Below are positions 2,489 through 23,303 of a stretch of 25,701 nt of DNA, piece by piece. Within the stretch, counting starts at the first letter, position 1. Every line of letters begins with the position of its first letter. The translations under genes were made by a program, and so were the position numbers. A model generated the notes under the pieces. The model saw only the letters and a program-made list of their open reading frames with translations, was not told the DNA's origin and did no database searches. Source of the DNA: a virus; IMG/VR virus record IMGVR_UViG_3300033141_000944, positions 1 to 25,701 of that record; one strand, 5' to 3'.

Positions 2489-2492
2489 TGTG

Positions 2493-2798: not shown

Positions 2799-2815
2799 CT
2801 GTTGCTGTTGTTTTG

Positions 2816-3743: not shown

Positions 3744-3745
3744 AT

Positions 3746-5847: not shown

Positions 5848-6365
5848 AGCGATTGTATTTTGTTTTTAATGTTGAAATTGAATGAATCAACCATTAGCTG
5901 TTCCTCGGCACTGGTGAAACCCGTAAATATGGTTCCAAATCGCGCCTCTTGCCCTTTGATCTTTTCGATGTTCTCAGGACGATTGATTACAATACTGTAC
6001 TCTAGCTCGCCCGTTTGATTGAGTTTAAATCCAGACTCCGAGTTATTGAAGTCCGACTGTAGACTGTTGCTTAATCTAAAATTGATGAACCCCGCTTCTC
6101 TTCCTTGTTGTGCGCGATACTCACGGTAACCGCCAGCATAATAACCACCCTGAACAGGGTTTCCAGTCTTACCAGTGCCGTTGGTCGCACGCGGAGAGGT
6201 TTTAGCATTGGCGTAAAATGGCTTTGTGCTGTAACTTCCTACTTTCGAGTCCTTAGCGTTCTTCCCTTCAATGAATATGCGCTCGCTTGCCGCCGCAAGA
6301 GTGTCATTGGCAGCGTCCTTAAACGCTGAATTAACCGCCGCTAATATGTCATTAAGATCAAACAT
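5844..6365 (-). CDS. Neck/tail-completion (virion morphogenesis) protein (173 aa)
   Basis: Follows the adaptor; RIF..GK..G..YS and basic mid-region typical of HK97 gp10/virion morphogenesis-like proteins (recalled). Confidence 0.55.
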   Translation of the reverse strand: MFDLNDILAAVNSAFKDAANDTLAAASERIFIEGKNAKDSKVGSYSTKPFYANAKTSPRATNGTGKTGNPVQGGYYAGGYREYRAQQGREAGFINFRLSNSLQSDFNNSESGFKLNQTGELEYSIVINRPENIEKIKGQEARFGTIFTGFTSAEEQLMVDSFNFNIKNKIQSL

Positions 6366-7366: not shown

Positions 7367-7368
7367 AT

Positions 7369-7415
7369 GAAAAGAAAATAGTGGCTGGATTCAGCATAGA
7401 GCCTAGCCCAGCCAC
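7369..7415 (-). terminator. Probable intrinsic terminator after the major capsid gene
   Basis: GTGGCTGG (7415-7408) / CCAGCCAC (7388-7381) stem followed by TATTTTCTTTT; the loop is long (19 nt). Confidence 0.6.
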
Positions 7416-7435
7416 CGAAGCAACAGATAAAAAGA

Positions 7436-8494
7436 TTACGTATTTACTACTTCAATAGGAGCGAAGAAGTTGATGCCATCGTAGTCTGATCCCGTTGGGA
7501 ACATATCGGCTGGCATAGAAACAACCTTAGTAGTTGAGTACAGGTTGAAACTCAAGTTCTCACAATCATCCTTGATCTTAAGGTCGTAACGTACGCCCGT
7601 CTTAGGTGAACGAACCACCATAGATACGTAGTTAGCAGATGCTTGGATGTCTTCAATCGCACCTTCTTTCCATGTTGAGTTGGTCCACTGAAGCAACTGA
7701 AGCGCTCCAGCTTGTACAGCCCATGAGAATTCGTTACCACCAGCGGCAGCAACAACACGCTTGTCCCATGCAGCGGCAAAACCGAATGCATCAACCATAG
7801 CGCCGATGTCTACACCTTGATTAGCGCAACATCCGTTCTCAACACGACGGAAGTACTTGTAGAGGTCTTGACCACCTACGATAAGCGTGTTAGGGTTGAA
7901 CAATGAAATGTTCTTAGCCAACTCAATGTCTTCCATTGCGTAAGGAGCAAGCTCGTCACTTGTACCAGAACGAAGTGTCTCTACTTCAAGAACGCCAGCG
8001 TTAACGTTTTGTACGTCAGCACCCCATGCGCCCAAGAGAGCAACCGCGTCGTTAGCAGTCTTTGTAGCTACTGCGCGGTCCATCGCGTTAATCATACGCT
8101 CGATCACTTCAAGGAAGTATGTAGCGTTGTCTTTACAGTTCTCACGGAGAGACTCTTCAGAAACCAACTCCTCTACATTGAGGCGGTCCGTTGGATCAAT
8201 AGTGTAAGTCTCGTTACAATCACCACGCTCTGTAGTAGCTACACAGCTAGTAGATGATTGAGTCGTTACTTGATCCTCTTGGATGAATTGGTTATACAAA
8301 AGCTCTACTTGGCGAACTTTGTTTTGACCTGGATGTACGAGTTGTTCTACTCCCCCTGTGTTGTTCACAATGAACTGAAGGAATGGCATTGGTTCGTCGA
8401 TCACACCGCGACCGCTGCCGTTTGTCGAAAATAAGTTGTCGAGACCGTCTTGAATATCAGGACATGCCGTCAACAACGTTGAAAGATATGACAT
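7436..8494 (-). CDS. Major capsid protein (352 aa)
   Basis: Follows the scaffold gene; HK97-like size; structured leader and downstream terminator as expected for a highly expressed gene. Confidence 0.8.
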   Translation of the reverse strand: MSYLSTLLTACPDIQDGLDNLFSTNGSGRGVIDEPMPFLQFIVNNTGGVEQLVHPGQNKVRQVELLYNQFIQEDQVTTQSSTSCVATTERGDCNETYTIDPTDRLNVEELVSEESLRENCKDNATYFLEVIERMINAMDRAVATKTANDAVALLGAWGADVQNVNAGVLEVETLRSGTSDELAPYAMEDIELAKNISLFNPNTLIVGGQDLYKYFRRVENGCCANQGVDIGAMVDAFGFAAAWDKRVVAAAGGNEFSWAVQAGALQLLQWTNSTWKEGAIEDIQASANYVSMVVRSPKTGVRYDLKIKDDCENLSFNLYSTTKVVSMPADMFPTGSDYDGINFFAPIEVVNT

Positions 8495-8515
8495 GTTTAT
8501 AACATTTTAAAAAGT

Positions 8516-8556
8516 AACCTATTCACATTATTTGGCCTGAATAGATTGAGCCACCT
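8516..8556 (-). promoter_or_regulatory. Predicted H-type RNA pseudoknot in capsid gene leader
   Basis: S1 UGGCU/GGCCA; S2 AAUCUAUUC/GAAUAGGUU; 8-nt loop AAUAAUGU; 21 nt of A/U-rich sequence to the AUG. Confidence 0.6.
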
Positions 8557-8623
8557 TAATAAAATGCTGTCTATTATGCCCGATCAGCAAGGCACATAAC
8601 ACGTCTGTCAGTAAACCAGACGA

Positions 8624-9520
8624 CTATCGCCCAGAATTTCTATACTTGAAACCGCCGCCTGTAGCGATCGGCTTATTACTCTTGCTTTGCCCGTTGTTGC
8701 CTGCGGGCTTACGCTCTGGCTTAAAGTTTCCAAGTCCGCTACTAGCAGGCTTGCCGCCATCGTCGTTAATCTTGAGAATCTTGTGCGTTGCCGCTCCTTG
8801 CTTGTATACATCGGTATACGATAGCGATTCCCCGTGCTTCTTAGGGTCAGATACCAACTCTCCGTCCAGACCTCTGATCTCAAGGCCGTAACTAACCTTG
8901 CCTTCATCGTCGGTCGTCTTTTTCAAAGAAGTCTTATACGTCTCGTTCATCTCCGCAAAGAACCCTTTTACCTGCAATTTGTTTGCGTTAGGGTCTAATC
9001 CTAGCTTTGCGTGTGCGTCGTTACGCAACTGATTAAAGATAAACGACTCTTTTTCTTTCTGTGCCCCCGCAATCAAACCGTCTTTCTCCTCAATAGTGCC
9101 CTTAAGCTGAGTGTTGATATTCGTGAGGTCTTGAAGATTCTTTTTTAAATCATGAATCTCCGCAATCTTAGCTTCGAATTCTTTTGTTTGATCTGGGTTG
9201 CCTTTGCTTGCCGCTTCAAGTTTACCTGTAAGCTCCGTAATTTGGTTCTGAAAGTATTGTACCCCCGACTCCATTACGTCCTCCCAGCGATCTGCTTTGC
9301 CGTCTGGAAATACAACGCCAGCATCCTTAAAGGTTTTCTTTGCTGCCGTCTGGTTCGATCCCAAACGCTTTCCGATTAAGTCACGCACTACCTTATGGTC
9401 GCCCGCGTCTTTCACGTTAATTAGGTTTTCTGACCCCCACTTCTGTAGGTCGTCTGCTGTTGTTTCGTCTGTTAAGTCAAAACCTAAGTACTTAACAAAA
9501 TTTACTGCTGCTTCACTCAT
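8624..9520 (-). CDS. Capsid scaffolding protein (298 aa)
   Basis: Central coiled coil (EFEAKIAEIHDLKKNLQDLTNINTQLKGTIEEKDG) and low-complexity G/K/N/P C-tail; directly upstream of the capsid gene. Confidence 0.75.
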   Translation of the reverse strand: MSEAAVNFVKYLGFDLTDETTADDLQKWGSENLINVKDAGDHKVVRDLIGKRLGSNQTAAKKTFKDAGVVFPDGKADRWEDVMESGVQYFQNQITELTGKLEAASKGNPDQTKEFEAKIAEIHDLKKNLQDLTNINTQLKGTIEEKDGLIAGAQKEKESFIFNQLRNDAHAKLGLDPNANKLQVKGFFAEMNETYKTSLKKTTDDEGKVSYGLEIRGLDGELVSDPKKHGESLSYTDVYKQGAATHKILKINDDGGKPASSGLGNFKPERKPAGNNGQSKSNKPIATGGGFKYRNSGR

Positions 9521-9521
9521 A

Positions 9522-9896
9522 TTATTCTGTTAATTTTGCCTTAATCTTTGTAATCAGTTTCACTTCCCCTGTGTTGCTATGGTTGCCTTTCAATGAAAGT
9601 GACTTTGCAAGCGATACCCAGTCATCCCGCTCATACTTTTCCTGAAGCTCTTCCACTCCCATGCTTAGCACGTCCTCGCGAATGTCTTTAATCTCTTCCT
9701 TGAATTCAGGAGTTACCACATCTACTTCTATCTCTGCAACTGGTGGCGTGGGATTAACTGCTGGTTCACTAAGTGCTGGAACTAAACGCAAGTTATGCTT
9801 GTGCATATAAGCCGCGTTATTAGCAAGACGGTCAGAGATGCCGATAATACGCTCGGCGCCGTCCTTGTCTGTTCTGATTACTTTTACCTGTTTCAT
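9522..9896 (-). CDS. Hypothetical protein with P/V-rich linker and small helical C-domain (124 aa)
   Basis: First gene after the promoter at 9902-9933; the C-terminal helices resemble HeH/Rho-N-like domains (tentative). Confidence 0.65.
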   Translation of the reverse strand: MKQVKVIRTDKDGAERIIGISDRLANNAAYMHKHNLRLVPALSEPAVNPTPPVAEIEVDVVTPEFKEEIKDIREDVLSMGVEELQEKYERDDWVSLAKSLSLKGNHSNTGEVKLITKIKAKLTE

Positions 9897-9901
9897 AATA
9901 A

Positions 9902-9933
9902 CAAATATAGTTTATTCATGTTTAAATATCAAA
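9902..9933 (-). promoter_or_regulatory. Bacteroidota-type promoter for the scaffold/capsid block
   Basis: TTTG (9933-9930), 20 nt, TATATTTG (9909-9902); ATG only 5 nt further on, so the leader is very short or absent. Confidence 0.7.
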
Positions 9934-9962
9934 TACTTAGCAAGTCTACCTAAAGTAAAGGT

Positions 9963-10904
9963 TTAAGCCACTAGCCCAAACTCGTCTATCTCGGTTTGTG
10001 TTGGGGTGTAATTGCCATTGTTAATATTCCGCTGTATTACGCTCTTTGGCACCTTGAAAATAGACACAGGCATCAAAGAATGATTGCAATTATACCCACC
10101 GCAAAAGCTAAATATTGTCGTTGAGGTGGTTAAAGGCCGTTGCCCTTGCCACTTTTTACTTGGATCGGGGTTTCCTGCCCCTCTTTGTTCGTTTGTAACC
10201 CATAGCTCTACTTCTTTTTTATGAAAATACTTTCCGTCCCGAGCCTCACAGAACTTGCGTGTGTCCTTGACTCGCCCTCCTGTGTAGAAATACCACTCTA
10301 CGCCCTGTAGGTTGGCGCTCTGCTGTGTAAACTCTCTATCTGATGTTGAGAATTGATCTCGTATATTGTTCTCTCTACTTGTGTAGCTTGATAAAGCCCC
10401 TAGCCTATCATCGTTGCCAGTTATCAAAACGCTCATATTAGCAAAGAGGTCTTCTAATAGTCCGTTCTGGCTTACCGCGTTATCCATTAACGCCTTTATA
10501 GGGCTAAACAATGGCTTATTTAAGCTATCGCCAACCAACAATAATAATGAAGCGTCGCGACTGCTCTCAAAAACACCCTTACTAGCTGGCGTGCTTTTAA
10601 AATCGCCTATCTCTTCCTCGAATAATTGCTTGGTTAGTTTTGCTTGCTTGTCGAATTCACTACCAAAGTTCTTAACAATGTTGGTGTACCTGTCGGTCTT
10701 CATGAAACGGCGTATCTCGCCTAAGATACTATTAACCGTCTTTAGGTTTCCCGCCGTAGGCTTGATGCGGTCGTTCTTGATGTCTAGTTTGCCTAGTAAG
10801 GAATTGATTTTTGCCAATAATCGCGGCTCGAACTTAGCCAATGAGTCGTAGAAGTCCTGCGGTACGGTATCTAACCTATCTGCTTTTTCAGTAATCGCTG
10901 ACAT
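9963..10904 (-). CDS. Minor head protein, MuF/SPP1 gp7-like (313 aa)
   Basis: Follows portal; WYFYTGG..DTRKFC and GGYNCNHSLMPV motifs are characteristic of this family. Confidence 0.8.
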   Translation of the reverse strand: MSAITEKADRLDTVPQDFYDSLAKFEPRLLAKINSLLGKLDIKNDRIKPTAGNLKTVNSILGEIRRFMKTDRYTNIVKNFGSEFDKQAKLTKQLFEEEIGDFKSTPASKGVFESSRDASLLLLVGDSLNKPLFSPIKALMDNAVSQNGLLEDLFANMSVLITGNDDRLGALSSYTSRENNIRDQFSTSDREFTQQSANLQGVEWYFYTGGRVKDTRKFCEARDGKYFHKKEVELWVTNEQRGAGNPDPSKKWQGQRPLTTSTTIFSFCGGYNCNHSLMPVSIFKVPKSVIQRNINNGNYTPTQTEIDEFGLVA

Positions 10905-10906
10905 TA

Positions 10907-12793
10907 TTATACGTCAATTGGAGGTGCTATAGGTGCTTGTGCGTTTCTTGCCGACTCGGCCGCTTCTCTTGCTACCGCTTCAAGCTGCTCTACTTGGTCT
11001 GATAGTGGCAATTCTAGGAAATCAGGGTTGTCTCGTACCAGTTCTGACACAAACGATAGCCCCGAACGGTGCAAGATGATCTGCCAAGGCTCAATCTCAC
11101 CTCTACTAGCGCCCATATCAATGTCTTCTTGGCTTGCCGTAAGTAGTTTATCAGCGTCAGTGAGCAAGTTGAGCACCTTAATGCTTGAGTTTTCACCGTG
11201 GAACGCGCTCTTAATGTACATTCTAAGCAACTCAGCAATAACTGGGTACGGCACATTACCAGATTCTGAAGCCTCTTTGATGTCTGCCAAGTAATCCGAC
11301 TGCGTTTTGAAATCAAAGTCTTTAGGCTCGATGATGTCAGGCATATTAAAGCGGTTTTTATATCGCATAATGCCAGTCATTTTGAACAAAAACCGTACAA
11401 TCTGCCAAGTCTGACCCGATGGAGGTGCTACAAACGAAATCAAATTCTTTAAATCAAGCGCTTTAGCTGTAGCTGTGGCGTCTTCACGGCCCTTAGCTTC
11501 GCCCATAGTAGTATTGAGGTGTAGAAGCCCTCTAGCCTTGTTGATATTGTTTTCAACCTCTTCTCTAAGCATCTTAGGTGCGTCGAGCGGTGGAGCAACA
11601 AACTTAATAGGCTCTGTAATGTCTTTATCACCAGCAGGGTTGAACTGATCTGGCGGCGCAATTAACATCTCGCCAAATGGAGCCATACGGCTAATCATAC
11701 CCTGCCCGTTACATTTTGGGCAAATCTTATTATATTCATCCCCTTCTACTGTATGGCCTTTTAAATATCCTCCTGAGCATTTAACGTTGTAAGCCTCAGT
11801 AATTTCTTCGTATTCACACTGGCTGGCCAAAGTGATCTTATGAGGAAACACCACCTTAGCCTTAATCATCTGCAAGTAGCCGTTATCTAAAATAGCTTCC
11901 TCTAGCAGCGCTGTGCCTAGCATGAATGGGGACTGGTAAATAATCTGATTATCGTCAATACCTGCAACGCCCATGAGTTTAATAACTGGAACCTCCCCAG
12001 CCTCGTGCTCAAACCACGGTATTACGTTATATTCGTTGTCTTCTTTCTTGCCTACTTGGATAATACGGTAAATCCACTGATCGTCATATAGCTCATAGAT
12101 ATAACCGTCCTTGACTGGCTTTTTGTCAATTATCACAATTGACTTCTCAGGCGTCTCGATCATTGCGTAAACGCCGTCTTTATACCCTACCACTCGGTTA
12201 ATGTCGTAGTAGTAAGGGAGTGGTTCAGGCAAATCAACACCTGAAACAACCAATTCACCATCCTCGTTCTCTACTAATGGAATGTCTTTAGGGCGGACAG
12301 CAATAACGCCGTTAGCATCCTGAGCCTTGATTGTGGGCAAGAAATTACGAGCATAGTTCATCAGAGACCCATATTGGCCGTACTCCTTAGTTACATATTG
12401 CTCGTATGTTGTCTCAGTGTTTACAAAATCGTCATCCTCGGCCTTGTAAGAGATATTGAAATTACCCTGTATGAAACAACGTCCTACAGTATTAACGTAG
12501 TCCATCGCTACTGGACCTGTAATTAACTTGTAATTAGCCTTTAACCATTTCGCTTCCTTATCGGTTTGGTTTGGTGAGCGGTTCTCGAACAGTTGCATAG
12601 GCACTACTCGGTTATCAAAGTGCATGCGCACAGCGTCATACAGCCTAACCATGTAGTTGTAATTTGGATAGTACTCAGCTTTATATTCTTTGATATAAGC
12701 GTTCTTATCCTTTTTTAGCTCATTTTCACGCGCCTCACGTACTGTGATTGTATGATTGAGTAACGCTTCTATTTCCTGTCCTTCGAGTGCCAT
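10907..12793 (-). CDS. Portal protein (628 aa) with a CxxCxGxG insertion
   Basis: Size, position before MuF-scaffold-capsid, acidic low-complexity C-tail, and RGREDATATAKALD wing/clip-like segment. Confidence 0.8.
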   Translation of the reverse strand: MALEGQEIEALLNHTITVREARENELKKDKNAYIKEYKAEYYPNYNYMVRLYDAVRMHFDNRVVPMQLFENRSPNQTDKEAKWLKANYKLITGPVAMDYVNTVGRCFIQGNFNISYKAEDDDFVNTETTYEQYVTKEYGQYGSLMNYARNFLPTIKAQDANGVIAVRPKDIPLVENEDGELVVSGVDLPEPLPYYYDINRVVGYKDGVYAMIETPEKSIVIIDKKPVKDGYIYELYDDQWIYRIIQVGKKEDNEYNVIPWFEHEAGEVPVIKLMGVAGIDDNQIIYQSPFMLGTALLEEAILDNGYLQMIKAKVVFPHKITLASQCEYEEITEAYNVKCSGGYLKGHTVEGDEYNKICPKCNGQGMISRMAPFGEMLIAPPDQFNPAGDKDITEPIKFVAPPLDAPKMLREEVENNINKARGLLHLNTTMGEAKGREDATATAKALDLKNLISFVAPPSGQTWQIVRFLFKMTGIMRYKNRFNMPDIIEPKDFDFKTQSDYLADIKEASESGNVPYPVIAELLRMYIKSAFHGENSSIKVLNLLTDADKLLTASQEDIDMGASRGEIEPWQIILHRSGLSFVSELVRDNPDFLELPLSDQVEQLEAVAREAAESARNAQAPIAPPIDV

Positions 12794-12876
12794 TACGCAG
12801 CTTTCAAATAAGGTAGAATAATTGTGCTTTGACAGCCTGACTTTTTGCCGCCACAGCGCATCTTAATAATCTTCAT
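12793..12876 (-). CDS. 27-aa coupled mini-ORF (MKIIKMRCGGKKSGCQSTIILPYLKAA)
   Basis: ATG overlaps the GT stop (ATGA) and its TAA overlaps the portal ATG (TAATG); it fills the gap exactly. Confidence 0.6.
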   Translation of the reverse strand: MKIIKMRCGGKKSGCQSTIILPYLKAA

Positions 12877-14051
12877 ATCGTTGCAAAATTTTTCTGTTGT
12901 CCTTCGTGTACCGTCATCTTACGACCCAATGCCTTAGATAATTTCTTAGCCAATGACATTTCAGCGTCTCGGTTAACGTCGTCAAGTACAAATATAGCAT
13001 CCTTGTTAAATAGGTCTAGGTTCTCTATAAGTTTGCCTCGGTCGCAAATCCGAGCAGGAGGGCCGTCAATCAAATAAACATCTGCATTCTTAATGTCCTG
13101 CATCTTGTCTACGTCGTACCAGTCATCTACAATAGGGGCTAGTATGGTGTTTTTGTGTGATCTTAACCACTTAGGGTTATGCTCAATAGATGTTAGGTCA
13201 TAATTTTTAGCAATCTCACGAGACGCATTACCAGCACCCAGTTCAACTACCTTCCCTCCCTTAACGTTTCCAACTAACCATCGTAATAAATTCCACTCGA
13301 TAGATGCATCGCCTAGCTTGTTTCTGTCCGCACGTTGTGCTGGGAAGTGCTGTAGCTTAGGAATAGAATTGATAATATCGGTCTGTACCGAGTCGTCCTT
13401 AGCTACGCTTTTCCAAATAGCTAAATCCTGACTTCCTTTTTGCTCTATAATCCACGCTCTGTTACGTCTTAAAGTAATTTGCGGCAATGACAAATAGTGC
13501 AAGTGTCTAGCCATCTGTGGGTCTAGCATGTTCTTTTGATCCTTGAACAACTCCCAATCGAACTTCAATGTGTTGGTGTGGAACGCCATAGTTCCCGTTC
13601 CTAGCATGTGTACTGATTGAGTCTTATTCCATCGCTCGTAGCAGTAAAATATTTGGCGCGACTTGTCGCGGTAGTACGATTTAATAGGGTGTCTACGGTA
13701 GATTGTAGCGTGAACGCCTACAACAGCCTTACGATAGTGTAGGTCGATTTCGTTGGTCAAGTATGATACATAGTCCTTTGGATACTTTATATCGTCGTCC
13801 ATTGAAAAGTAATAGCCATCAACGTCCTTAGCTTTATAGAACTTGCCTAAGGCACGTAAATCTCCATCAGCTTCCGAGGATAAGATAGGCGTGATTTTCT
13901 CGTGTTTTAGAAACTCGGGAACCTTCTTGTAGTTGTTGAGGTATACGTAAATCTCGTCGAACTGGTCGATAATAGATTCAATGGTAACCTTTAGAAACTC
14001 CTCTCTCGCTGGATGCGAAGCTATACCGCCAATGACTTTACTTGTTCGCAT
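12873..14051 (-). CDS. GT-A (GT2-like) glycosyltransferase fused to class I SAM-dependent methyltransferase (392 aa)
   Basis: N-domain IASHPAREEFL..IYVYLN..YYFSMDDDIKYPKDYV (DxD); C-domain VVELGAGNAS, SIEHNPKW, YLIDGPP, VLDDVNR. Confidence 0.8.
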   Translation of the reverse strand: MRTSKVIGGIASHPAREEFLKVTIESIIDQFDEIYVYLNNYKKVPEFLKHEKITPILSSEADGDLRALGKFYKAKDVDGYYFSMDDDIKYPKDYVSYLTNEIDLHYRKAVVGVHATIYRRHPIKSYYRDKSRQIFYCYERWNKTQSVHMLGTGTMAFHTNTLKFDWELFKDQKNMLDPQMARHLHYLSLPQITLRRNRAWIIEQKGSQDLAIWKSVAKDDSVQTDIINSIPKLQHFPAQRADRNKLGDASIEWNLLRWLVGNVKGGKVVELGAGNASREIAKNYDLTSIEHNPKWLRSHKNTILAPIVDDWYDVDKMQDIKNADVYLIDGPPARICDRGKLIENLDLFNKDAIFVLDDVNRDAEMSLAKKLSKALGRKMTVHEGQQKNFATI

Positions 14052-14895
14052 GCTTGCTCTTTAGTAATGGGGCAACCTTATACATGTGTCGCGTGTTCAT
14101 TTGCTTGCAAATGTTTCGCATATGACGGTCGTACAACTCTTTATAGCGAACCTTAACAAGGCGCCGCCCTCCGTAGATAGCTAAAATATACCATCCCTCG
14201 AATACCTCGGAGATAGTCTCTTTGTTCTTCCATCCAAAATAGATATGTCTTCCACCATGAGCATCGGTGTTCATGCCTAGCTGCGCCATAGTGCCTGAGT
14301 AAATCAACTCATCTGGTATACTGCCTCCCCATCTCATTGTTAGCTTACGCTTGTCAAACTTCTTATCGTAGTTTTTAGCTACTTTATCGAAGAACGCTTT
14401 GGCCTCATCGCATTTTCTAACAAATACGTATGAGCTTTGAATTGCAGGCAATACCGCATCCTCTTCTAAGTCAAAGAACTCCCAAATATCATCATTGGTA
14501 GCCCAAATAGAGTAAGGTATGTCGTCTGATTTACCGCCTTTACCGTTGACTTGAGTATAGAACCAGCCTTCTTTGGCTGTTAACTCATCCATAAGCGGAT
14601 CGAGGGACTTTAATGCACATCCGTCAACATCTAAGTACAAGTTCTCCTCATAAGGCATGTATTTGTACATGTTGCACTTAATCTGTCCAGCATCTGTGTG
14701 TTTTTTTTGTAGAGGTACCAGCTTATCGAAAACGTCCCAATTCTCGGCTGGCATTGGCTTTAATTTGAAGTTATGAAGGTCATGCACCAAAGCTACCTTT
14801 AATTTAGAGGTAGCCTTGATGCTTAAAGCCATATTGTAGGCCATATTGTAATAGGCCCTGTCGCCAAAGGCGAAAAGTACAATTCCTTTGCTCAT
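14038..14895 (-). CDS. GT-A fold nucleotide-diphospho-sugar transferase (GT8/GT77-like, 285 aa)
   Basis: KGIVLFAFG..AYNMALSIK and YEENLYLDVDGC (DxD after a hydrophobic strand); TAATG-coupled to the major tail gene. Confidence 0.75.
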   Translation of the reverse strand: MSKGIVLFAFGDRAYYNMAYNMALSIKATSKLKVALVHDLHNFKLKPMPAENWDVFDKLVPLQKKHTDAGQIKCNMYKYMPYEENLYLDVDGCALKSLDPLMDELTAKEGWFYTQVNGKGGKSDDIPYSIWATNDDIWEFFDLEEDAVLPAIQSSYVFVRKCDEAKAFFDKVAKNYDKKFDKRKLTMRWGGSIPDELIYSGTMAQLGMNTDAHGGRHIYFGWKNKETISEVFEGWYILAIYGGRRLVKVRYKELYDRHMRNICKQMNTRHMYKVAPLLKSKHANK

Positions 14896-15437
14896 TATTG
14901 ACCGAAAATTCCAGCAGGTGCTGCGTGTAAGGTCGGATCAGTTTTTGATCTCCAACGCAATTCGCCCTCCCATTTTGACTGCTCGTTTTCTACGTCGTTA
15001 AACCCGCCAATAAGGCGTGAGTTACCTTGAATGAACTTTACTTGATCCGATTCGCAGTAGTACAACAATGCTCCACCGAACACTTTTCCGTTAGAGCTAT
15101 TCATTGCATTGTACGCATCGATGTTCAACGCATTAACGTTTCCATCAATCCAAGATATAGTACGATCATAGTTAGATACAGCGTCAGTTTCGCCTGCAAC
15201 CAAAGAAGCCTGTGAAATCTCACTAGGAGCATTCACAAGTACCTTAAGGCTTTTGTACAATACCGCGTCGCCAGCAGCAAGTAGAGCATTAATCTCCGTA
15301 TCGTCTGAAGGGTCTGTTGGTGTTGCACCACATTTGAATAGCATGACTTCAGGAACTACCCCAGTGAGAGGGTCACAGTCGATATTCAACACCTGCTCTT
15401 CGAGGTCGTCACACGTATAGCATGATTCGCATCCCAT
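14895..15437 (-). CDS. Major tail tube protein (180 aa)
   Basis: Size, acidic beta-rich sequence (SNYDRTISWIDG...SKWEGELRWR), own promoter and structured leader; Cys-rich N-terminus. Confidence 0.65.
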   Translation of the reverse strand: MGCESCYTCDDLEEQVLNIDCDPLTGVVPEVMLFKCGATPTDPSDDTEINALLAAGDAVLYKSLKVLVNAPSEISQASLVAGETDAVSNYDRTISWIDGNVNALNIDAYNAMNSSNGKVFGGALLYYCESDQVKFIQGNSRLIGGFNDVENEQSKWEGELRWRSKTDPTLHAAPAGIFGQ

Positions 15438-15464
15438 GATTGTAAATTATTAAATTCAAAAATC

Positions 15465-15500
15465 TTGGGTCACTATATGGCCTCCCAATCTAGGCCACCT
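15465..15500 (-). promoter_or_regulatory. Predicted H-type RNA pseudoknot in major tail gene leader
   Basis: S1 UGGCCU/AGGCCA; S2 UUGGG/CCCAA; 8-nt loop UAUAGUGA; 27 nt of A/U-rich sequence to the AUG. Confidence 0.6.
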
Positions 15501-15515
15501 AAAAGACGTGTGTAA

Positions 15516-15547
15516 CAAATATACTAATTACTAAATACTTACGCAAA
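15516..15547 (-). promoter_or_regulatory. Bacteroidota-type promoter for major tail-GT-portal block
   Basis: TTTG (15547-15544), 20 nt, TATATTTG (15523-15516). Confidence 0.7.
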
Positions 15548-15564
15548 CCACTTAAAGTAATGGT

Positions 15565-16065
15565 TTAACTGAAGTCTAGTATAGTGTACCATGTAATTAA
15601 CTCAAATTCGTTGGTTCCTACTGTGGGATTAGCGCCATTAACCTTGAAAACTAAAGAGTCGTTCTCTACAAATTTCTGCTGTGGTTTTCTGTCCGATTGC
15701 TCTACGTACTCTGTAATGCTTTGCGCGATAGCTAAATCAAATTCATGGAGCGCCTTAGTTCCTGTTGAGTGCCAAATTCCAGCTAAATCAGCGATAACAT
15801 AAGCGCCGCCGCCTCCAATGTTTCGAAGAACTGCAAAAACAGGATTGATAAACGTGTTGGCTCCTTGAGCTGGTAGAATCTCAATAGGTGTAGTCCCTGC
15901 CGCTAGGAATTGAGCCGAGCTGATCTGTGTTGTAATCTTAGAGTAGGTAACTAAATCAAGTGCATCGCCTTGGTAGTCTTTACCTGCTCTAACAATATGA
16001 GTAATATCCCCCGATTCTGGTGCTGACGGCAGGATATCTAATTGTGATAGTGATTTATCTGGCAT
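15565..16065 (-). CDS. Tail-associated structural protein (166 aa)
   Basis: N-terminal KSLSQLDILPSAPESGDITHIVRAG resembles the K-I-S-x-L-P..D...V fibre-attachment motif; the rest is beta-rich. Confidence 0.55.
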   Translation of the reverse strand: MPDKSLSQLDILPSAPESGDITHIVRAGKDYQGDALDLVTYSKITTQISSAQFLAAGTTPIEILPAQGANTFINPVFAVLRNIGGGGAYVIADLAGIWHSTGTKALHEFDLAIAQSITEYVEQSDRKPQQKFVENDSLVFKVNGANPTVGTNEFELITWYTILDFS

Positions 16066-16067
16066 AA

Positions 16068-17735
16068 TTAAGGGTTTATGATGATCTTACCACCATCGGT
16101 TTGTGTTATAAATAAACTGTTGTCCTCCTCCTGTACTAAGAAGTTTGAGTTTGTACATGAGGTGGCGAGACCTGTGCAGTCTCTAAATGTAATAGCTGGA
16201 TCATTCTGCTGCGGGTGAGTAATAATGTTCATGACGTGCGTGGCGTTGCAGTTTAGCCCGTCTGTATAGGTTGGTGTTAATTCGTCGTCTTGTAAGTGGC
16301 GTCTAACGCCGTCGATTGCCCAGTACTTAAACCCTAACATCAATGACAAGAAGTCGTACACATACTCAGGCTGGAAATCAATTTGAAACTCCTTGATCTT
16401 ATCGCGGTCATAGTACACGTTTAAGTAAGAGCCGTTGCTAAGTTTATTAGCTACTCGTGTTCCTGAATATGTCGCGCGACCAATCTTAGACTTTAGCCGT
16501 ATAGTAGGCGAAAACCCGCCATCAAAGTTAAAGCCCGCCGCTGGTCCATTATGGCAAGCGTTGACAAGGTGCGTGCAATGGTGATTGCCTAGATTTATTC
16601 TCGGTCCCTCCTCGTTGCATACGTAGTCCTCTGTATTGGCTTTAGTTACTGTAATCGAGTCAATCGTTATATCCGTAGCTCCTGCGCCTGCTGTGAGTGT
16701 TGTTAGGTTTAAATCTGTGTCGTCTGGTGTGATTTGGAAGTTATATGTGCCTACTGCGTTAATTGACGGACCTGCTACGGTTCCAATCTTAACGCTTAAC
16801 TGAGTGTCTGTGACAGCCGAAACAACTACCTCAACGTCATACAATGTACCAACTTCATACTCTGTAAATATATGTTCAGCTAGACCAATGTCGCCAGCGC
16901 CGCTAGAATTATATTCTAATCCACCTCCCGTAATTTGCCATGTTCCTACAGTACCGTTAGTCAAGAGCCAACCAGTAGTATTTTCATCACCCGAAAAGCC
17001 GTCTATATCAAAGCTGTTATTATACAGGAAGTTCTGACCACCTGAATTTATGTTAGGGTCTGCTATGCAAATCGTATAACACCCCTCGTCGATTCCTAGT
17101 TGAGTCCAATCAATATAGTTAGTGATACTATTGTCAATGATTTCAAATGCGTCGGGATTGTCTGTGATATTCAACTGCTCTATTACCGTTCCTGTGGAAT
17201 CCTTTATAAGTATCTTTGTGTGCTGAGGAAAAACCTCGTACGCATCTACGCGACTTAAGCACCCTAACACATCGTCGTCACCAAACACCCGAACGCCGTC
17301 CGCTGAGGCTTGGATATAGAATGTGTAATCACCTATAGCGCTAATCTCAAATGCATTACCTCCTAACGTAAGGTCAAAAACTCCACCACTCAAAGAATCT
17401 ACCGAGACATTAACCTGATAGTAGTTGCCTATTACGAAAACGCCGTTTTGAAATGATGTTGAAGCACTGGCCGCGCCGTTGAGCACCTTACATAGTTGCC
17501 CACCGCCTACCGTCCATGTGGGACTTACAATAGTCCAAGGACTGCCACCACCAACCGTAAGACTGAACGATGGATCATCAACCACCTGTGGAGCAAATCC
17601 CGAAATGTCGATAAGGTTCTGGAACTGCGTTACGTCGCTCTGATTAACTAACTGATCGATGTCATTCTCATCGCAACAATCACACTCATCCGCAGCTATG
17701 TCAAAAGGGTACGCTTGGTTTCTTAGGTAAATCAT
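16068..17735 (-). CDS. Tail-tip protein (Dit/baseplate-like) with two carbohydrate-binding-like modules (555 aa)
   Basis: Two related modules (DDPSFS..W..W.V.GGGQL..GNYYQV.V.V and NNSFD..GW..WQITGGGL..GTLYDVEV.V..ITIDSITV), plus a C-terminal tail-type domain. Confidence 0.6.
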   Translation of the reverse strand: MIYLRNQAYPFDIAADECDCCDENDIDQLVNQSDVTQFQNLIDISGFAPQVVDDPSFSLTVGGGSPWTIVSPTWTVGGGQLCKVLNGAASASTSFQNGVFVIGNYYQVNVSVDSLSGGVFDLTLGGNAFEISAIGDYTFYIQASADGVRVFGDDDVLGCLSRVDAYEVFPQHTKILIKDSTGTVIEQLNITDNPDAFEIIDNSITNYIDWTQLGIDEGCYTICIADPNINSGGQNFLYNNSFDIDGFSGDENTTGWLLTNGTVGTWQITGGGLEYNSSGAGDIGLAEHIFTEYEVGTLYDVEVVVSAVTDTQLSVKIGTVAGPSINAVGTYNFQITPDDTDLNLTTLTAGAGATDITIDSITVTKANTEDYVCNEEGPRINLGNHHCTHLVNACHNGPAAGFNFDGGFSPTIRLKSKIGRATYSGTRVANKLSNGSYLNVYYDRDKIKEFQIDFQPEYVYDFLSLMLGFKYWAIDGVRRHLQDDELTPTYTDGLNCNATHVMNIITHPQQNDPAITFRDCTGLATSCTNSNFLVQEEDNSLFITQTDGGKIIINP

Positions 17736-17793
17736 TGCTTTAAGTTATGAGTGCTAACATTTTGTTACACAACACTATAAAGATAGTGAAATT

Positions 17794-18165
17794 TTAGTAT
17801 TTGCTAGTTGATATAGTAGTGTTTAGTACCAATTTATTGTCTTCAATGTGCGTGCTATAAATCTGTCTGCGGAATAACCCGTTGAAGTTCAGCAGTATTT
17901 CAATATGTTGCGTTGAATCCTTTAACGTTGATTCGCTTTGTATGTGGTATTGGGCATTTTCAAACAACACAATAGACTTAGAGCCGCGTAGCTCGTCACT
18001 AAATGCTGTGTGTTGGTCGTTAAATATTGTCAGTTGATCCAATTTTACGTCTGTTGTTACGGTCGCATGAACATATCTAGGAGTATCCTTGTCACATGCG
18101 GCAAATAATGCCATCACCAACACTAAGAGAACGGTGTTTCTGTTTCGTTTGATATTAGTTGCCAT
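17794..18165 (-). CDS. Lipoprotein (123 aa precursor)
   Basis: From ATG 18165 (ORF track starts at 18210): MATNIKRNRN-TVLLVLVMALFAA-C-DKD; basic n-region, hydrophobic h-region, lipobox FAAC; overlaps the upstream gene by 43 nt. Confidence 0.7.
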   Translation of the reverse strand: MATNIKRNRNTVLLVLVMALFAACDKDTPRYVHATVTTDVKLDQLTIFNDQHTAFSDELRGSKSIVLFENAQYHIQSESTLKDSTQHIEILLNFNGLFRRQIYSTHIEDNKLVLNTTISTSKY

Positions 18166-20072
18166 GTTGTTTCTCCTGTTATTAGGTTCCTTGTTATTTC
18201 TTGCGGCCATGCTCCGAGCACTTTAGCGTGCCCAAACTCAACATCGTTAAATACCTGTATCTGTCTAGCGGGGTTTTCTTCCATATCTCGCCATAATGTC
18301 TCGTCTATAGCGTGCTCAAACTGGTAATTAATAGCAAAGTATTCTGAAGCCTCTTGGTCTGTTGTGGCCTCTCCTGCTGTTACCGTATTACGAAGCTCAA
18401 AGAATGTATCAGAACCGCCTGAAGATGCAATGTAAGTAGCTGACCACGGAGCGCCCGTCAATGTTGCTACGAGTCGTAGTTGTGCTGTGTTACCTTTTTT
18501 TAGGTATGCTGGTTGATCTTGCCAATCCAAACTAAAAACTAAATTAGCGGCCACTTGCTGCCCAATAGCTAATAAAGTATTGGAAACTATTTCGCCTGCT
18601 GGGGTGATTTGCTGGACAATTGCTGTCAAAGTAATGGTCTCTGGAGCACCTGGATTTGTTGTTACATCTACAAAATATTCACCATGAAATCTATAAACTC
18701 CCGTTTCCTGTACCGTGAAGTCATAGCCTACCGTGTCCCATCGTGAGTTATCATTGAAGAATGGCAGTGGTGAATCAACGTCCAACTCTGTTGGGTTCCA
18801 CTCTGTACTGACCGCAAAAGGCCCAAAAGTATTGGTTGTGCCAACCAAAAACTTGTCGGTAGTCTGTACAAAATTGTTAGTAATGTTGCCTTGCAACCTA
18901 TATCTGTCGATTACACGAATGTTTATAAGCTCAGGGTTATAGATGTACGGACCTCCCGTTACAGGGTCTGTAAGTCGCTCTGATGAGGCTTTAAGTGTAT
19001 TTTGATCGTACTGAACAATAAAAATGTCATCGTCCTTGTCCTCGTCTCCGTCAATTATGGCCTTAGAGATCAGATTGTGGTCAATAACCCAATCAGTAAA
19101 CAACTCCAATGAAGTACCGCCTGTGCATTGCCCTTCTACGTTCCATGTTTCTTCTACGTGTGTGATAAGCGGAATGTATGGAAAGTCGCTCATTACGTCG
19201 TAAACTGGCGTAAGCTCTTGTACGCCGACCTGATCCTTATCTGCATCGCTTGAGCCTACCTTTACGTTAGAATAAAAGCGTTGTATGTCTGTTGTTCTTT
19301 GGATAGCACGCACGTCATCAAGGCGAACCGTAGCTGACTGGGTAATAAATGACTCTTCCTCAAGCCTCAATGTAGATACGTTGTCTATCGTAATGGCGAA
19401 AAACCATAGATTGTACTTCTTAGAAATGTTCTCAAATAGGTCTTGTAGTGAGATGTAAGGGTCTTGCCATGACTGCTGACGCATATTTAGGCCCGTTGTG
19501 ACGCAATAACGCTCATCGTCTGGTAGATTATCATACCATGTGGATTCAAAGTTAATTGTGTCCTCTGATAACGCTTTAACCAAATCCGTAAAACAATCTT
19601 TTAGGTCGTATGCTTTTACTTTTCCAGCTAAATTACTGTTATCACTAGGGTCAAACGTCTGCAACTCAATTGGAGTGCTAGGCGTGAATGTGCCGCCGTT
19701 TATATCGATACCTTCACCAATAAAAAACTCTTTATTCTGTTGGTCTACAATTTTAGCGCCGAAACCTTCATCTTTAAGCTCTACTGTTAACTGCTTTTCC
19801 GATGAGTTGTCCTCTACAAATGAGTCAATAGTAAACAACTCAACCTCTCCTTTAACTGCACTATAAGCCTCGGTGTCGTCCTTTCGTAGGATAATTTCAA
19901 CATCTACCTTGCCGCAAGCTCCTAAAGCGGTGCGTTGGTCACGCATATATTTAGCAGCCTCGTCGCCTAACTCCAATGGCCCTACCTGTTGAACGGTAAA
20001 CACCTTTAGAGTATCATTACGCTTGATTTGCTTGCTTAGGTCACGCCAGTTAAGATAACCCTGCATCAGCAT
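18123..20072 (-). CDS. Tail-tip/baseplate hub protein with C1q-like beta-sandwich insert (649 aa as annotated; native start probably GTG at 20137)
   Basis: First gene after the tape measure gene; F.ND..W....YDFTVQETGVYRF is a C1q/BclA-like motif; 5' end disrupted by a 38-bp duplication. Confidence 0.7.
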   Translation of the reverse strand: MLMQGYLNWRDLSKQIKRNDTLKVFTVQQVGPLELGDEAAKYMRDQRTALGACGKVDVEIILRKDDTEAYSAVKGEVELFTIDSFVEDNSSEKQLTVELKDEGFGAKIVDQQNKEFFIGEGIDINGGTFTPSTPIELQTFDPSDNSNLAGKVKAYDLKDCFTDLVKALSEDTINFESTWYDNLPDDERYCVTTGLNMRQQSWQDPYISLQDLFENISKKYNLWFFAITIDNVSTLRLEEESFITQSATVRLDDVRAIQRTTDIQRFYSNVKVGSSDADKDQVGVQELTPVYDVMSDFPYIPLITHVEETWNVEGQCTGGTSLELFTDWVIDHNLISKAIIDGDEDKDDDIFIVQYDQNTLKASSERLTDPVTGGPYIYNPELINIRVIDRYRLQGNITNNFVQTTDKFLVGTTNTFGPFAVSTEWNPTELDVDSPLPFFNDNSRWDTVGYDFTVQETGVYRFHGEYFVDVTTNPGAPETITLTAIVQQITPAGEIVSNTLLAIGQQVAANLVFSLDWQDQPAYLKKGNTAQLRLVATLTGAPWSATYIASSGGSDTFFELRNTVTAGEATTDQEASEYFAINYQFEHAIDETLWRDMEENPARQIQVFNDVEFGHAKVLGAWPQEITRNLITGETTWQLISNETETPFS

Positions 20073-20114
20073 GCCGGGTCACGCCAGTTAAGATAACCCT
20101 GCATCAGCATGCCG
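20039..20114. repeat. Perfect 38-bp tandem duplication
   Basis: GGTCACGCCAGTTAAGATAACCCTGCATCAGCATGCCG at 20039-20076 and 20077-20114. Confidence 0.95.
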
Positions 20115-20133
20115 TCTAAATACAACTCTGCTC

Positions 20134-23100
20134 TCACACGTTACCCCTTCCTTTGTAGTTAGATTTTTTCAATTGATCTACGATTCTATCACCTATCTGG
20201 TATATTGCTTGCTGTGTTTGTCTCTCGCTTCTCAGTAGGTTGCTATCCGTAAAGCCTGATCCTTTTTGTACGTTGTTGGTTGTTTCGTATTTAAGATATA
20301 GTTCTCTTTGTCGGTGCTCGTCCATCATGTTAGTGATTCGAGAGCCTGATACACCTTGTCTCATAATACGACGTGTTTCTGAGGCTGTTTTTACCTGTGA
20401 ACCTCTAGGCAAATATACAATCTCTGGTCCTTCTTCACCAACAAGCGCCATACCTTCAGGAGAATAATTAGTACCCTTGGCAAACTCAGGCAGTGGTTGT
20501 GAGTTAATAAGTGCTATCTGTGCAAGTGTCTGCGCCGCTGTAATTCCCGCTAAAATACCAGTAGGATCGACCGTTAACGCTTTGGTAAATGCTACAGCAC
20601 CATTAATAAGGGCCTCAAACGTTGCAATTGCCCTCTCGCGTTCTGCTTGTTCGCGTTGTAGTTTTTTAGTTTTCTCGTCTGCCTCGCGTTCAATGCGCTC
20701 TCTTTGCTGTATGAGCTGCTCTCTTTGAGCTTCGCTAAGGTTTTCCGCTTCTAGTTTCTCGTCGATAGCTTTTAGTTCGGCGTCCTTTTCCTCTTCAATC
20801 GAGTTTATTTGCGCTTCTGTTTGTGCTTGTAGAGAAGCTATAGCAATATCACGTAAAGTTCCTGCAAGCTCTAACGCTGCGTCCTTACGTGCTTGGGTAA
20901 TCTCTTGTTCACGCGCTACCTCTTGTTGTCTTATGCCTAGTCTTATGTTAGCTAGTTCTTGCTCTGCCTGTACTGTACTCTCGCCAGCGGCCTTGCGTGC
21001 AGCTATAATGGCTTCCAGCTTCTCGATTTCTATCTGTAGCTCTGCATCTGCTAACTCTTCTGCGTTCGTTAAGGTGTTTGTAGCTGATAGCGTCTCTAGC
21101 TCGGCCTTTTTATTGATCTTGCTAATTTCTAACTCTAGTTCTGATTCCGCTAAAGTTTTACGTTGCTCTAATATTTGAGCATCTACATCTTGCGTTGAAA
21201 GACCAGCATTTAGTAATACCTGTCTTCTCTGTTCTAGCCTGTCTAACTCGATTCTGTTTAACTCAACTGTAAGCTCCTCGGCTGCTCTGATACGTTGTTC
21301 AGCTTCAAATTCTGCCGCAGATGCGTTTTGTTCTACGCCTAACTCGTCAAACTTGCGATTAATGTCTAGCTGATCCTGCGCAAACTTCTCACGTACTAAT
21401 TTTTTACCTTCCTCGCTCTTTTCAACTGCTTCTAATTCCTTCTGGAAGCTCAACTCAAGTAAAGCTAATTCACGCTCTCTCTCGTCCTCTAGTGCGTTCG
21501 CTCGTAAACTTGCTAGCTTCTCTTCAAGTTTTCTCCGTTCATTAGCTTGCTTTTCTCTTTGTTTGTCAGATTTTGAAGTGTCTGCAACCTCCTCTTCTGG
21601 TGGTATTACCGTGGTTAATCCCGCAAAAGCTCCTGTTTGAAGATTGGATATTGCGTCTTGTCTAGCTTGCTCCCTTGCATCCACCTCTGCTTGAATAGCA
21701 TCAACTACTTTTTGCTGTAATTCTAAAGAGTTTTCTGCACGTGTTCTCTCTGCGCCGCTTGTTGTGAGTACTTGGTTTAGAAGTTCCTTGTATTTTTGGC
21801 GCTCTATTTCAATGTTTGCCGTGGTTTGCTCGGATGCGGCTTTTATTTCTTCTGCGCTAGCGCCTGAAGCTATAGCTAGGTCCTCGGTCGCAAATACAGA
21901 CTCTGCCGTTTTCTCTACGTACTTATCCAGAGTCGCGTTAATCCCTGCTAATTGCTTTTCTGCTTCGCTTAACACTCCTGATCCCCCTGAAAAGCGTTCG
22001 AATGTTGCCGTGAAACTATTTAGTGATTCTAAAAGCTGTTGATTGCTGGCTGTTGCATCGTTTGCGGTAGTTAGAAATTCAAATAGAGACTGTTTTAGCT
22101 TTTCATATCCTACCAAGGTTTCAGTTAGCGGACCTGTACCGTTGTCTAATGACAAGACTAAAGACTCATAAGCGGCGTCTGTCTTAGCTGTTTGAAATTC
22201 TAGTGTTTGGCTTGCTATTGCGGCCTGCTCAACTGCGGTATTGGTTCCTGTTACTGCCTCTGTTAATTTCTCAAATCTATCTACGTTTTGAAGTAGGATT
22301 GCTCCCGCCTTTTGACCGCCCTCACCGAATAACTTAAACTGTGTTGTGCCATCGTTGGCAATCTTACTAAGCTCCCTAAGCCTAGTTGCTACTGGTAAGG
22401 TTGTATCCCCTAATATGTCGAGGTTTACCCCAGCTGCTTCAAGCCTTTGTATAGTGTCCTTTGGTAGCGCTTCTGCTGCGTTCAATCTATTGAAGACAGC
22501 GTTTAGGGCAGTTCCCGCTTCAGCTCCAGTTAATTGCTTATCCGCAAGCGTCTCAGCTAATGCAATAGCCTCTTCCGTGCTAGCATTACTCTGGCCAAGG
22601 ATAATACCAGACCTATTGAGTGTTTCCGCTAATTGATCTACTGGGGCGGCTCCTGCTTTAGACCCCGCAGCAAGTGCATTAACAATTTCTCCTGCTCTCT
22701 CGGCTGGCTCGTTAAACTGTGCTAGAATTGTGGTAAGTGATCCAACGGACTTTTCAAGGTCATCACCTGACGCTTGAGATAGTAATAATGCCTGCTCCGT
22801 TACCTTGGCAAGAGCGTCTGCATCATCAAGAAGTAGTGGTTGCGCAGAACCAACGAGCTTAAATGCATCAACAATTTCGGTGGCAGACTTTGCAAATTGC
22901 GGGCCTAAGCCAATAGCTTTTTGCCTGAAGAAGTCTAAGTCTTCACCTGTGGCTCCTGTAATAGCGCTCAATTCAGCTACAGCGGTGTCAAACTTATTAA
23001 TGATCTCGACAGCCTCTTTTACCGCTCTACTTACTCCAGCGATCAACCCGCCAATAGCAAATACAGGAAGTAAGTTGTTCTTGATTGTACTCCCCAACTT

Positions 23101-23238
23101 GTTAAACGCGCCGTTTAGTCTGCCTGTTACCTTTTTCTCGGTGTTGTCTGCAAATTTCTCTGCGCTTTGACCTGCTTTGTTTAGGTCTTGCCTTAAACAT
23201 TCAGCATCTCCGCATATCTGTAAAACTAATTCGCTCAT
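20134..23238 (-). CDS. Tail tape measure protein (1034 aa)
   Basis: TP901-type N-region (FDTAVAELSAITGATGEDL...), Ala/Glu-rich helical body, C-terminal FAKGT..EGMALVGEEGPEIV motif; follows the chaperone genes. Confidence 0.95.
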   Translation of the reverse strand: MSELVLQICGDAECLRQDLNKAGQSAEKFADNTEKKVTGRLNGAFNKLGSTIKNNLLPVFAIGGLIAGVSRAVKEAVEIINKFDTAVAELSAITGATGEDLDFFRQKAIGLGPQFAKSATEIVDAFKLVGSAQPLLLDDADALAKVTEQALLLSQASGDDLEKSVGSLTTILAQFNEPAERAGEIVNALAAGSKAGAAPVDQLAETLNRSGIILGQSNASTEEAIALAETLADKQLTGAEAGTALNAVFNRLNAAEALPKDTIQRLEAAGVNLDILGDTTLPVATRLRELSKIANDGTTQFKLFGEGGQKAGAILLQNVDRFEKLTEAVTGTNTAVEQAAIASQTLEFQTAKTDAAYESLVLSLDNGTGPLTETLVGYEKLKQSLFEFLTTANDATASNQQLLESLNSFTATFERFSGGSGVLSEAEKQLAGINATLDKYVEKTAESVFATEDLAIASGASAEEIKAASEQTTANIEIERQKYKELLNQVLTTSGAERTRAENSLELQQKVVDAIQAEVDAREQARQDAISNLQTGAFAGLTTVIPPEEEVADTSKSDKQREKQANERRKLEEKLASLRANALEDERERELALLELSFQKELEAVEKSEEGKKLVREKFAQDQLDINRKFDELGVEQNASAAEFEAEQRIRAAEELTVELNRIELDRLEQRRQVLLNAGLSTQDVDAQILEQRKTLAESELELEISKINKKAELETLSATNTLTNAEELADAELQIEIEKLEAIIAARKAAGESTVQAEQELANIRLGIRQQEVAREQEITQARKDAALELAGTLRDIAIASLQAQTEAQINSIEEEKDAELKAIDEKLEAENLSEAQREQLIQQRERIEREADEKTKKLQREQAERERAIATFEALINGAVAFTKALTVDPTGILAGITAAQTLAQIALINSQPLPEFAKGTNYSPEGMALVGEEGPEIVYLPRGSQVKTASETRRIMRQGVSGSRITNMMDEHRQRELYLKYETTNNVQKGSGFTDSNLLRSERQTQQAIYQIGDRIVDQLKKSNYKGRGNV

Positions 23239-23241
23239 CGT

Positions 23242-23281
23242 TAGGGTTTAGCCTGTTGCTTCGGTGGCTGAACTCGCCCTA
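23242..23281 (-). promoter_or_regulatory. Hairpin in tape measure leader carrying an 18-nt segment complementary to the capsid 3' UTR
   Basis: UAGGG/CCCUA and AGCC/GGCU stems with 12-nt loop ACCGAAGCAACA, ending 3 nt before the AUG; 23253-23270 is the exact reverse complement of 7409-7426. Confidence 0.55.
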
Positions 23282-23303
23282 TGATGCGCTCTATAATAAT
23301 AAT

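Follow-up and report, generated by a model that had tools for sequence, protein, structure and literature searches.

The c4 antisense RNA of phages P1 and P7 is encoded a short distance upstream of its ant/icd target, is processed from the transcript and controls immunity, and in phage lambda the sib element acts as a retroregulator in cis through a local hairpin that is cut by RNase III. Here we describe two complementary sites in a marine-sediment phage, one in the 3' untranslated region (3'UTR) of the major capsid protein gene and the other in the leader of the tail tape measure protein (TMP) gene. The window, that is the whole stretch of DNA that was analysed, is the 25.7 kb record IMGVR_UViG_3300033141_000944, which is estimated to be ~60% complete. 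Selection on the complementarity of the two sites is well supported by comparison with related phages, and an RNA link between head and tail gene expression is probable because the relatives keep the match even where the letters differ. Our reading, held with slightly better than even confidence, is that the 3' end of the capsid mRNA carries a base-pairing regulator that is built like a 3'UTR-derived small RNA (sRNA) and acts on the TMP leader.

Like the 3'UTR-derived sRNAs CpxQ, SdhX (PMC6393394) and DapZ, the putative regulator has a single-stranded seed directly upstream of the parental intrinsic terminator, a target in the 5' leader of another mRNA near the start codon, and a seed that is conserved above its surroundings. 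It differs from them in that the predicted phage pairing extends much further (15-23 bp and a second helix), in that the processed small transcript is putative, and in that regulator and target belong to one same-strand phage late gene cluster. As with c4 and ant/icd, the two partners are found at separate places on the same strand of the same transcription unit, and matched changes in the two give related phages different specificities. Unlike c4, the regulator would be 15.8 kb downstream of its target and would link morphogenesis genes. In the anti-antisense activation of rpoS by DsrA/RprA and in the loop-loop recognition of CopA-CopT or OxyS-fhlA, as here, the target occupies the loop together with the 5' arm of a stem-loop in the leader, and the start codon is next to the 3' side of that stem-loop. 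The partners of one related lineage (F, below) can be predicted to show complementary 7-nt loops on 4-bp stems, as in loop-loop systems, and another lineage (E) has two short separate contacts like OxyS-fhlA; unlike in these systems, the phage stem-loops are weak, predicted only and without statistical support. Finally, as in lambda sib, a structure at a terminator that follows a gene would decide the fate of an mRNA according to the transcript that carries it, the difference being that the partner in this case is a distant leader.

Our literature searches found no described base-pairing link from a capsid message or its 3'UTR to a TMP leader. Tailed phages need their head and tail proteins in widely unequal quantities, and the controls known so far are the order of the genes, the strength of promoters and terminators, translational coupling and frameshifting. 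If true, the proposed link would add post-transcriptional cross-talk between morphogenesis modules, and would be a rare case of a phage 3'UTR riboregulator with a defined target, acting in a host group where initiation does without a Shine-Dalgarno (SD) motif and the structure of the leader is therefore decisive. The natural versions of the pair (A/B/G, F and E, where A is the window's own) are ready-made orthogonality controls.

The two sites and their predicted duplex

The late genes of the window are all on the minus strand, as are the sites, structures, genes and promoters given with coordinates in this and the following paragraph. The sense strand at 7426-7409 reads CUGUUGCUUCGGUGGCUG, and its exact complement CAGCCACCGAAGCAACAG is found ~15.8 kb away at 23270-23253, which is 15-32 nt ahead of the TMP ATG. 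With flanking G-U and Watson-Crick pairs the sense RNAs can pair over 23 bp including three G-U (helix H1, 7405-7427 with 23252-23274, the latter running from -36 to -14 as counted from the TMP ATG). The three positions of A without a perfect match are all G-U when the sense strand is read, and the antisense strand would give A-C there. Duplex and cofold predictions place a second helix of 8 bp (H2) after H1 across a small internal loop, in which GCUCUAUG in the terminator loop (7395-7402) pairs with CAUAGGGC in the leader (23276-23283). A shorter H2 of 5-6 bp, CUCUA with UAGGG, can be read from the sequences of two relatives (B1 and BG, below). Relative to the two RNAs folded apart, cofolding brings a net gain of -24.9 kcal/mol in A and one of -33.8 kcal/mol in BG, where the null is -8 +/- 3.5 kcal/mol; for the window, shuffled leaders give -8 to -9.5 +/- 3.3 kcal/mol. 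An earlier note on this DNA had pointed out the 18-nt complement and its 23-bp extension, and both can be re-read in the sequence, H2 being the predicted addition. It had also put the chance of such a match in a window of this kind at about 0.5%, which is consistent with our shuffling: the 18-nt repeat is the longest inverted repeat of the window and this length was reached in none of 200 shuffles (nor in any of 100 in a separate run).

The gene context that the earlier note had assumed was borne out. The capsid gene (7436-8494, 352 amino acids (aa)) was assigned to the HK97 fold from an AlphaFold (AF2) model, made with 63 homologues as input and with a predicted local distance difference test (pLDDT) score of 85.6; the top Foldseek matches of this model in the PDB are only HK97-fold phage capsids and encapsulins, with the phage capsids at a probability of 1.0. 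The same protein had zero matches in Pfam and PHROG, and its family has 355 representatives. The TMP gene (20134-23238, 1034 aa) was identified by PF10145 at 5e-23 and by PHROG TMP families. Past the capsid stop the sense RNA has a U-rich stretch, CUGUUGCUUCGGUGGCUG, the rest of a hairpin, a U tract and the next ATG. This hairpin (7380-7416, 10-bp stem, fold dG -22.6, z -3.3) is G+C-rich and is immediately followed by the U-rich tract UAUUUUCUUUUC (7368-7379), as expected of an intrinsic terminator, and the tract ends directly at the ATG of the following gene (6365-7366). A simple terminator scanner skipped it because its loop is longer than 8 nt, and folding recovered it. The structure is kept in relatives despite sequence change: in lineages C, F and E the corresponding position has a hairpin and U tract whose sequence is unrelated (z -2.3 to -2.9), and the stem arms of lineage C differ from A on both sides. 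The 18-mer and H1 thus straddle the foot of the terminator, the 5' half of H1 (7417-7427) preceding the stem and the 3' half being the 5' arm of the stem. On the other side, the TMP leader is 65 nt long (23239-23303) and shows neither an SD nor a promoter motif by sequence and pattern scan. Its copy of the 18-mer spans the 5' arm and the 12-nt loop of a predicted weak stem-loop (AGCC / GGCU).

Further copies of the 18-mer, as of a dispersed repeat, had been named in the earlier note as a finding that would go against it. The 18-mer is not a dispersed repeat of the kind formed by repetitive extragenic palindromes (REP) or miniature inverted-repeat transposable elements (MITE), and the 25.7-kb record as a whole contains just two copies. 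In IMG/VR, besides the relatives of the phage, it matched only three contigs, which are unrelated and in which it is apparently within genes, and in 596 Gb of prokaryote genomes there were 40 single matches with unrelated flanks, a number at or slightly over chance. An Rfam scan of the whole window gave no matches at gathering scores. Nor is this a cis-encoded antisense RNA, as both sites are on the sense strand of the late genes and 15.8 kb apart.

Conservation and compensatory change in relatives

The phage family is rare, with 8 clusters for a 555-aa protein encoded at 16068-17735 and 18 for the capsid. The capsid region had no match among GenBank phages in the distant mode of blastn, single-protein scans of IMG/VR returned near relatives only, and alignment-based scans found no further lineage with both sites; the contigs recovered in one metagenome scan each hold one site only. 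Both sites were seen in independent assemblies from IMG/VR, ENA, JGI and Logan, and the joint conservation and compensatory change that the earlier note had proposed to look for were found in relatives.

Lineage B1 (L023, one 27-kb ENA contig with both sites) has a head module that is 92% identical to that of the window and a TMP module that is ~70% identical. The capsid 3'UTRs of B1 and the window are identical. The B1 leader is shorter, with different flanks, yet an exact run of 23 nt that includes the 18-mer (23248-23270) is kept. Within the ~70%-identical TMP part (18130 to ~24600) this run is the fourth longest and the sole non-coding one among the longest. In the same leader CC replaces UU, which turns G-U into G-C pairs and makes the exact match grow to 20 nt. 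Lineage BG, obtained by joining L021 to L081 through a 123-nt overlap at 100% identity, has a B-type leader, and both its head and its tail modules are only ~70% identical to the window (capsid 72% at the amino acid level). Both sites are again kept. The capsid 3'UTR of BG has an exact run of 36 nt in common with A (7403-7438), which holds the 18-mer, and the UTR is 87% identical, as against 65-74% for the genes on either side; these genes, like the terminator loop and the U tract, differ.

In lineage F (L076, one 29-kb JGI contig with both sites; capsid 70% identical at the amino acid level) the letters of the two sites have changed. The leader has TAGCAGACAAAGCTA, and there is an exact 15-nt complement of it in the capsid 3'UTR. 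This pair is the longest exact inverted repeat of its 21.6-kb locus, and 15 nt was reached in none of 2000 shuffles. The sites are 11 nt past the capsid stop and 18 nt ahead of the TMP start, compared with 12 and 17 nt in A. The TMP of F starts at a GTG (L076:4071) and has an N-terminus homologous to that of the window TMP. The UTR stretches of F and the window align without gaps in MAFFT. In a gapless alignment of A, B and F with 22 pairs, 92% are paired and 8 pairs are changed on both sides, while controls in which the partner was slid by 1-3 columns give 27-41% paired and 0-2 double-changed pairs; as we built this alignment of three rows ourselves and derived the structure from the same sequences, these counts are descriptive and not a probability. 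Combinations across lineages match over 5-9 nt vs 15-20 nt for the cognate pairs.

The remaining lineages are weaker cases. Lineage E (L027 with L030, one Logan contig with both sites; TMP 50% identical at the amino acid level) has two separate 9-nt complements between the last 70 nt of a 342-nt leader and the region upstream of its terminator, for which the probability of two or more is 0.008 in dinucleotide shuffles. In lineage H the capsid contig (L083) and the TMP contig (L026) come from one sample and are unlinked, and their 8+3-nt complement is not significant (P ~0.1). Lineage C (capsid 78% identical at the amino acid level) has kept CUGUUGC with the remainder of the 18-mer changed, its 3'UTR stretch beginning with CUGUUGCAGUCG. 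The C contigs that were reached carry no TMP gene. When IMG/VR was scanned for the predicted complement of this stretch, the matches were the UTR itself and unrelated chance matches, none of them near a TMP gene. Lineages C (L024/L088) and D (L025) have no TMP module upstream of the late genes or of their 553/552-aa gene, and instead have small opposite-strand early genes with helix-turn-helix (HTH) and ANT-domain proteins preceding the late genes. Because early genes take the place of the TMP module in C and D, the gene orders indicate that the tail module has moved between lineages.

The mosaicism of these phages is strong, as can be seen when 8486-17753 of the window is compared with L014 and in the step from the head to the TMP module of B1. 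The fibre-like region at 2400-5000 is almost identical to lineage G (L081), with exact runs of up to 431 nt, next to head genes at ~70%.

Proposed action and alternative explanations

On the UTR side the anatomy is that of a 3'UTR-derived sRNA: an A/U-rich stretch, the seed (CUGUUGCUUCGG...), the terminator hairpin and a U tail. The seed is directly upstream of the terminator and conserved over background, its complementarity is conserved or covarying, and the F and E sites are likewise just upstream of their terminators. We propose that the seed pairs with the TMP leader ~15-35 nt before the start codon, where the target takes up the loop and the 5' arm of the stem-loop. In a host that probably initiates without SD motifs, the structure of the leader would set the rate of translation initiation. 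The capsid transcripts, fed also by an internal promoter, are probably the abundant partner and may remodel or occlude the TMP leader, perhaps making a substrate for RNase III, so that TMP output would be tied to head-gene expression. In this scheme the meeting of the RNAs in trans, the processed 3' fragment and the direction of the effect are our inferences. Between the two directions we lean slightly toward activation, by opening of a start-proximal structure, over repression. The fuller claim is one we hold tentatively, with a little less than even confidence: that, in siphophages that infect SD-less, Bacteroidota-like hosts and have the tail module upstream of the head, the whole or processed 3' end of the capsid mRNA is a dedicated trans regulator of TMP translation and would tie tail initiation to the expression of head genes, and that the pairing drifts by compensatory changes so that A/B/G, F and E are mutually orthogonal.

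Several results weigh against this proposal. The conserved islands exceed the duplex by 9 nt in the UTR and by 5 nt in the leader, and because they are larger than the duplex, constraints besides pairing also act on them. There are three independent sequence versions only, from a rare phage family. The two 9-mers of lineage E are each at chance level alone and are not co-linear. The cofold energies that the earlier note had asked for go beyond the shuffled null in A and BG, and in F the gain is no better than that of shuffled leaders (-9.6 vs -9.2 +/- 3.4). The hairpin with a 12-nt loop that the note had drawn in the leader is indeed predicted, at a z of only -0.7 to -1.95, and the small stem-loops of leader and UTR are not above shuffles. 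Its idea that the capsid 3' end opens this hairpin is weakly supported by folding, in which the accessibility of the start site rises when the target is blocked (0.32 to 0.52 in A, 0.52 to 0.56 in B1 and 0.42 to 0.53 in F); this is a small shift on a weak structure. When the UTR of A is folded with the flanking coding sequence, most of the seed is predicted to be paired in cis. Among the public sequencing runs checked no RNA run was listed with the phage. Finally, compensatory changes are equally changes of a DNA inverted repeat, and covariation alone is no proof that the RNA level is the relevant one.

Three side observations belong to these structures. The conserved last codons of the capsid gene (AUUGAAGUAGUAAAU; 7440-7465) can pair in cis with the UTR seed at 7417-7426, and a ribosome terminating there could open this structure and so link exposure of the seed to capsid translation. 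In more distant relatives the TMP leaders (L026:1600-1690 and L027:1490-1580) have strong long hairpins a little ahead of the TMP start, with z values of -4.7 and -4.8 and UGUUACA / UGUAACA arms around a G+C-rich stem, and a structured TMP leader seems to be general in this phage group. A 14/15-nt complement exists between 7419-7433 in the UTR and 2792-2806, the start-codon region of a 101-aa gene (2493-2798), and was set aside as a candidate since it has no counterpart in lineage F.

An explanation that does without regulation is that the match is the relic of an inverted duplication, in which module shuffling copied a 20-30-nt piece of the terminator region before TMP and each copy was then kept for local reasons, one as a terminator and the other as a leader element. 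In its favor, mosaicism is high in these phages, where the TMP module may or may not precede the 555-aa gene and identity changes in jumps, the A leader shows signs of local duplication, and the 5' arm of the terminator would be constrained regardless. In addition, 5 nt of the conserved leader 23-mer (GCUAA) have no pairing partner in the UTR. Local constraint does not account for the F sites, which have changed together at the same positions (8 double changes; chance <5e-4), and it leaves the two complements of lineage E unexplained. The part of the UTR upstream of the terminator stem is exactly conserved at a background of ~70%, and the neutral survival of both 18-mers at 70% identity would be on the order of 0.7^36. 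We regard the relic as unlikely.

Slightly less likely still, in our judgment, is a function at the DNA level, where one protein (a regulator, a looping protein or a site-specific recombinase) reads both sites or the repeats invert the 15.8-kb block from TMP to capsid. Co-varying inverted repeats would also be expected for a single DNA-binding protein, which could be encoded elsewhere given that the record is ~60% complete. Against such a protein, the shared segment slides: in A and B it is 18-20 nt long and extends into the terminator arm, while the 15 nt of F correspond to positions 4-18 of the 18-mer of A. Dyad symmetry is lacking in the motif, each of the imperfect positions is a G-U pair on the sense strand, and neither site has a promoter motif (the pattern scan found none in the TMP leader and none within the end of the capsid gene). 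As for inversion, the window has no gene of the resolvase or integrase families (PF00239 and PF00589 without match, in a record that is ~60% complete), and the orientation is the same in all independent assemblies of A, B1, F and E. The contigs of four DNA runs list no strand-changing joint at the repeats, with the limit that contigs can miss rare forms, and they did show the B-type leader indel. In low-depth runs contigs end near 7429-7436 and 23269, which we judged to be uninformative.

The earlier note had also suggested that the leader blocks termination. As a mechanism in cis, this would mean that on transcripts starting upstream of TMP the leader pairs with the 5' arm of the terminator 15.8 kb downstream and causes read-through, and that transcripts from internal promoters terminate. 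In A, B1 and BG the duplex does cover the whole 5' arm and is far more stable than the hairpin; both sites are on the same strand, no predicted terminator between them stands out from shuffles, and internal promoters exist. The relatives speak against it. The paired stretch of F ends 5 nt before the terminator stem and the complements of E are upstream of the stem, so that sequestration of the arm is not a conserved feature. Across 15.8 kb of translated RNA the leader would also have to pair faster than a hairpin that forms locally. Because the F pairing lies outside the terminator stem we disfavor antitermination and think it improbable. A chance match or assembly artefact, for which it could be said that ~0.5% of such windows hold an 18-nt inverted match and that very many windows were scanned, is highly improbable given the sites in independent assemblies and their conservation and covariation in relatives.

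A product made by read-through or frameshifting over the leader was considered as well and rejected, as the 23-mer is in different frames in A vs B and there are stops in every frame.

Host, promoters and neighboring genes

No SD motifs were found at the genes of the window, the window carries Bacteroidota-type promoters and the nearest named relatives of the TMP are from Bacteroidota; for these reasons the host is probably a member of this group. The Bacteroidota are not known to have a classical Hfq route. The promoter pattern (TTTG, 15-23 nt, TAnnTTTG) has 8 matches in the window vs 1.1 expected. One match at 9902-9933 on the minus strand, found by the pattern scan and inspection of the sequence, probably drives a scaffold-capsid transcript that ends at the capsid terminator. 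A second late promoter of this type was found by the scan at 15516-15547 on the same strand, and these two have a longer upstream box in common, TTACTTTARGT....

The 555-aa protein mentioned above had no match in Pfam or PHROG. It is conserved in all lineages. An invariant CDCC[DE]E motif is found at its N-terminus, and Cys, Gly and Asn residues are conserved at many positions.

Where the TMP stop meets the start of the next gene (649 aa) there is a perfect 38-nt tandem duplication (20039-20114). Record G002, which is 99% identical, has a single copy, and the TMP gene of lineage B has an ATGA overlap with the gene that follows. Its length is no multiple of 3, and the duplication may have arisen in assembly or be a true variant with a shifted frame at the end of TMP. 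In lineage F the TMP gene of L076 is without ~40 nt that are present in the 99.6%-identical L079 (L076:4260-4300 vs L079:90-170), and its frame is broken after ~73 codons. The same contig has two pairs of inverted repeats at L076:2115-2392 and 9331-9598 with the same spacing of 7193-7194 nt, which suggests an inverted duplicated segment involving the reverse-strand 125-aa gene of F.

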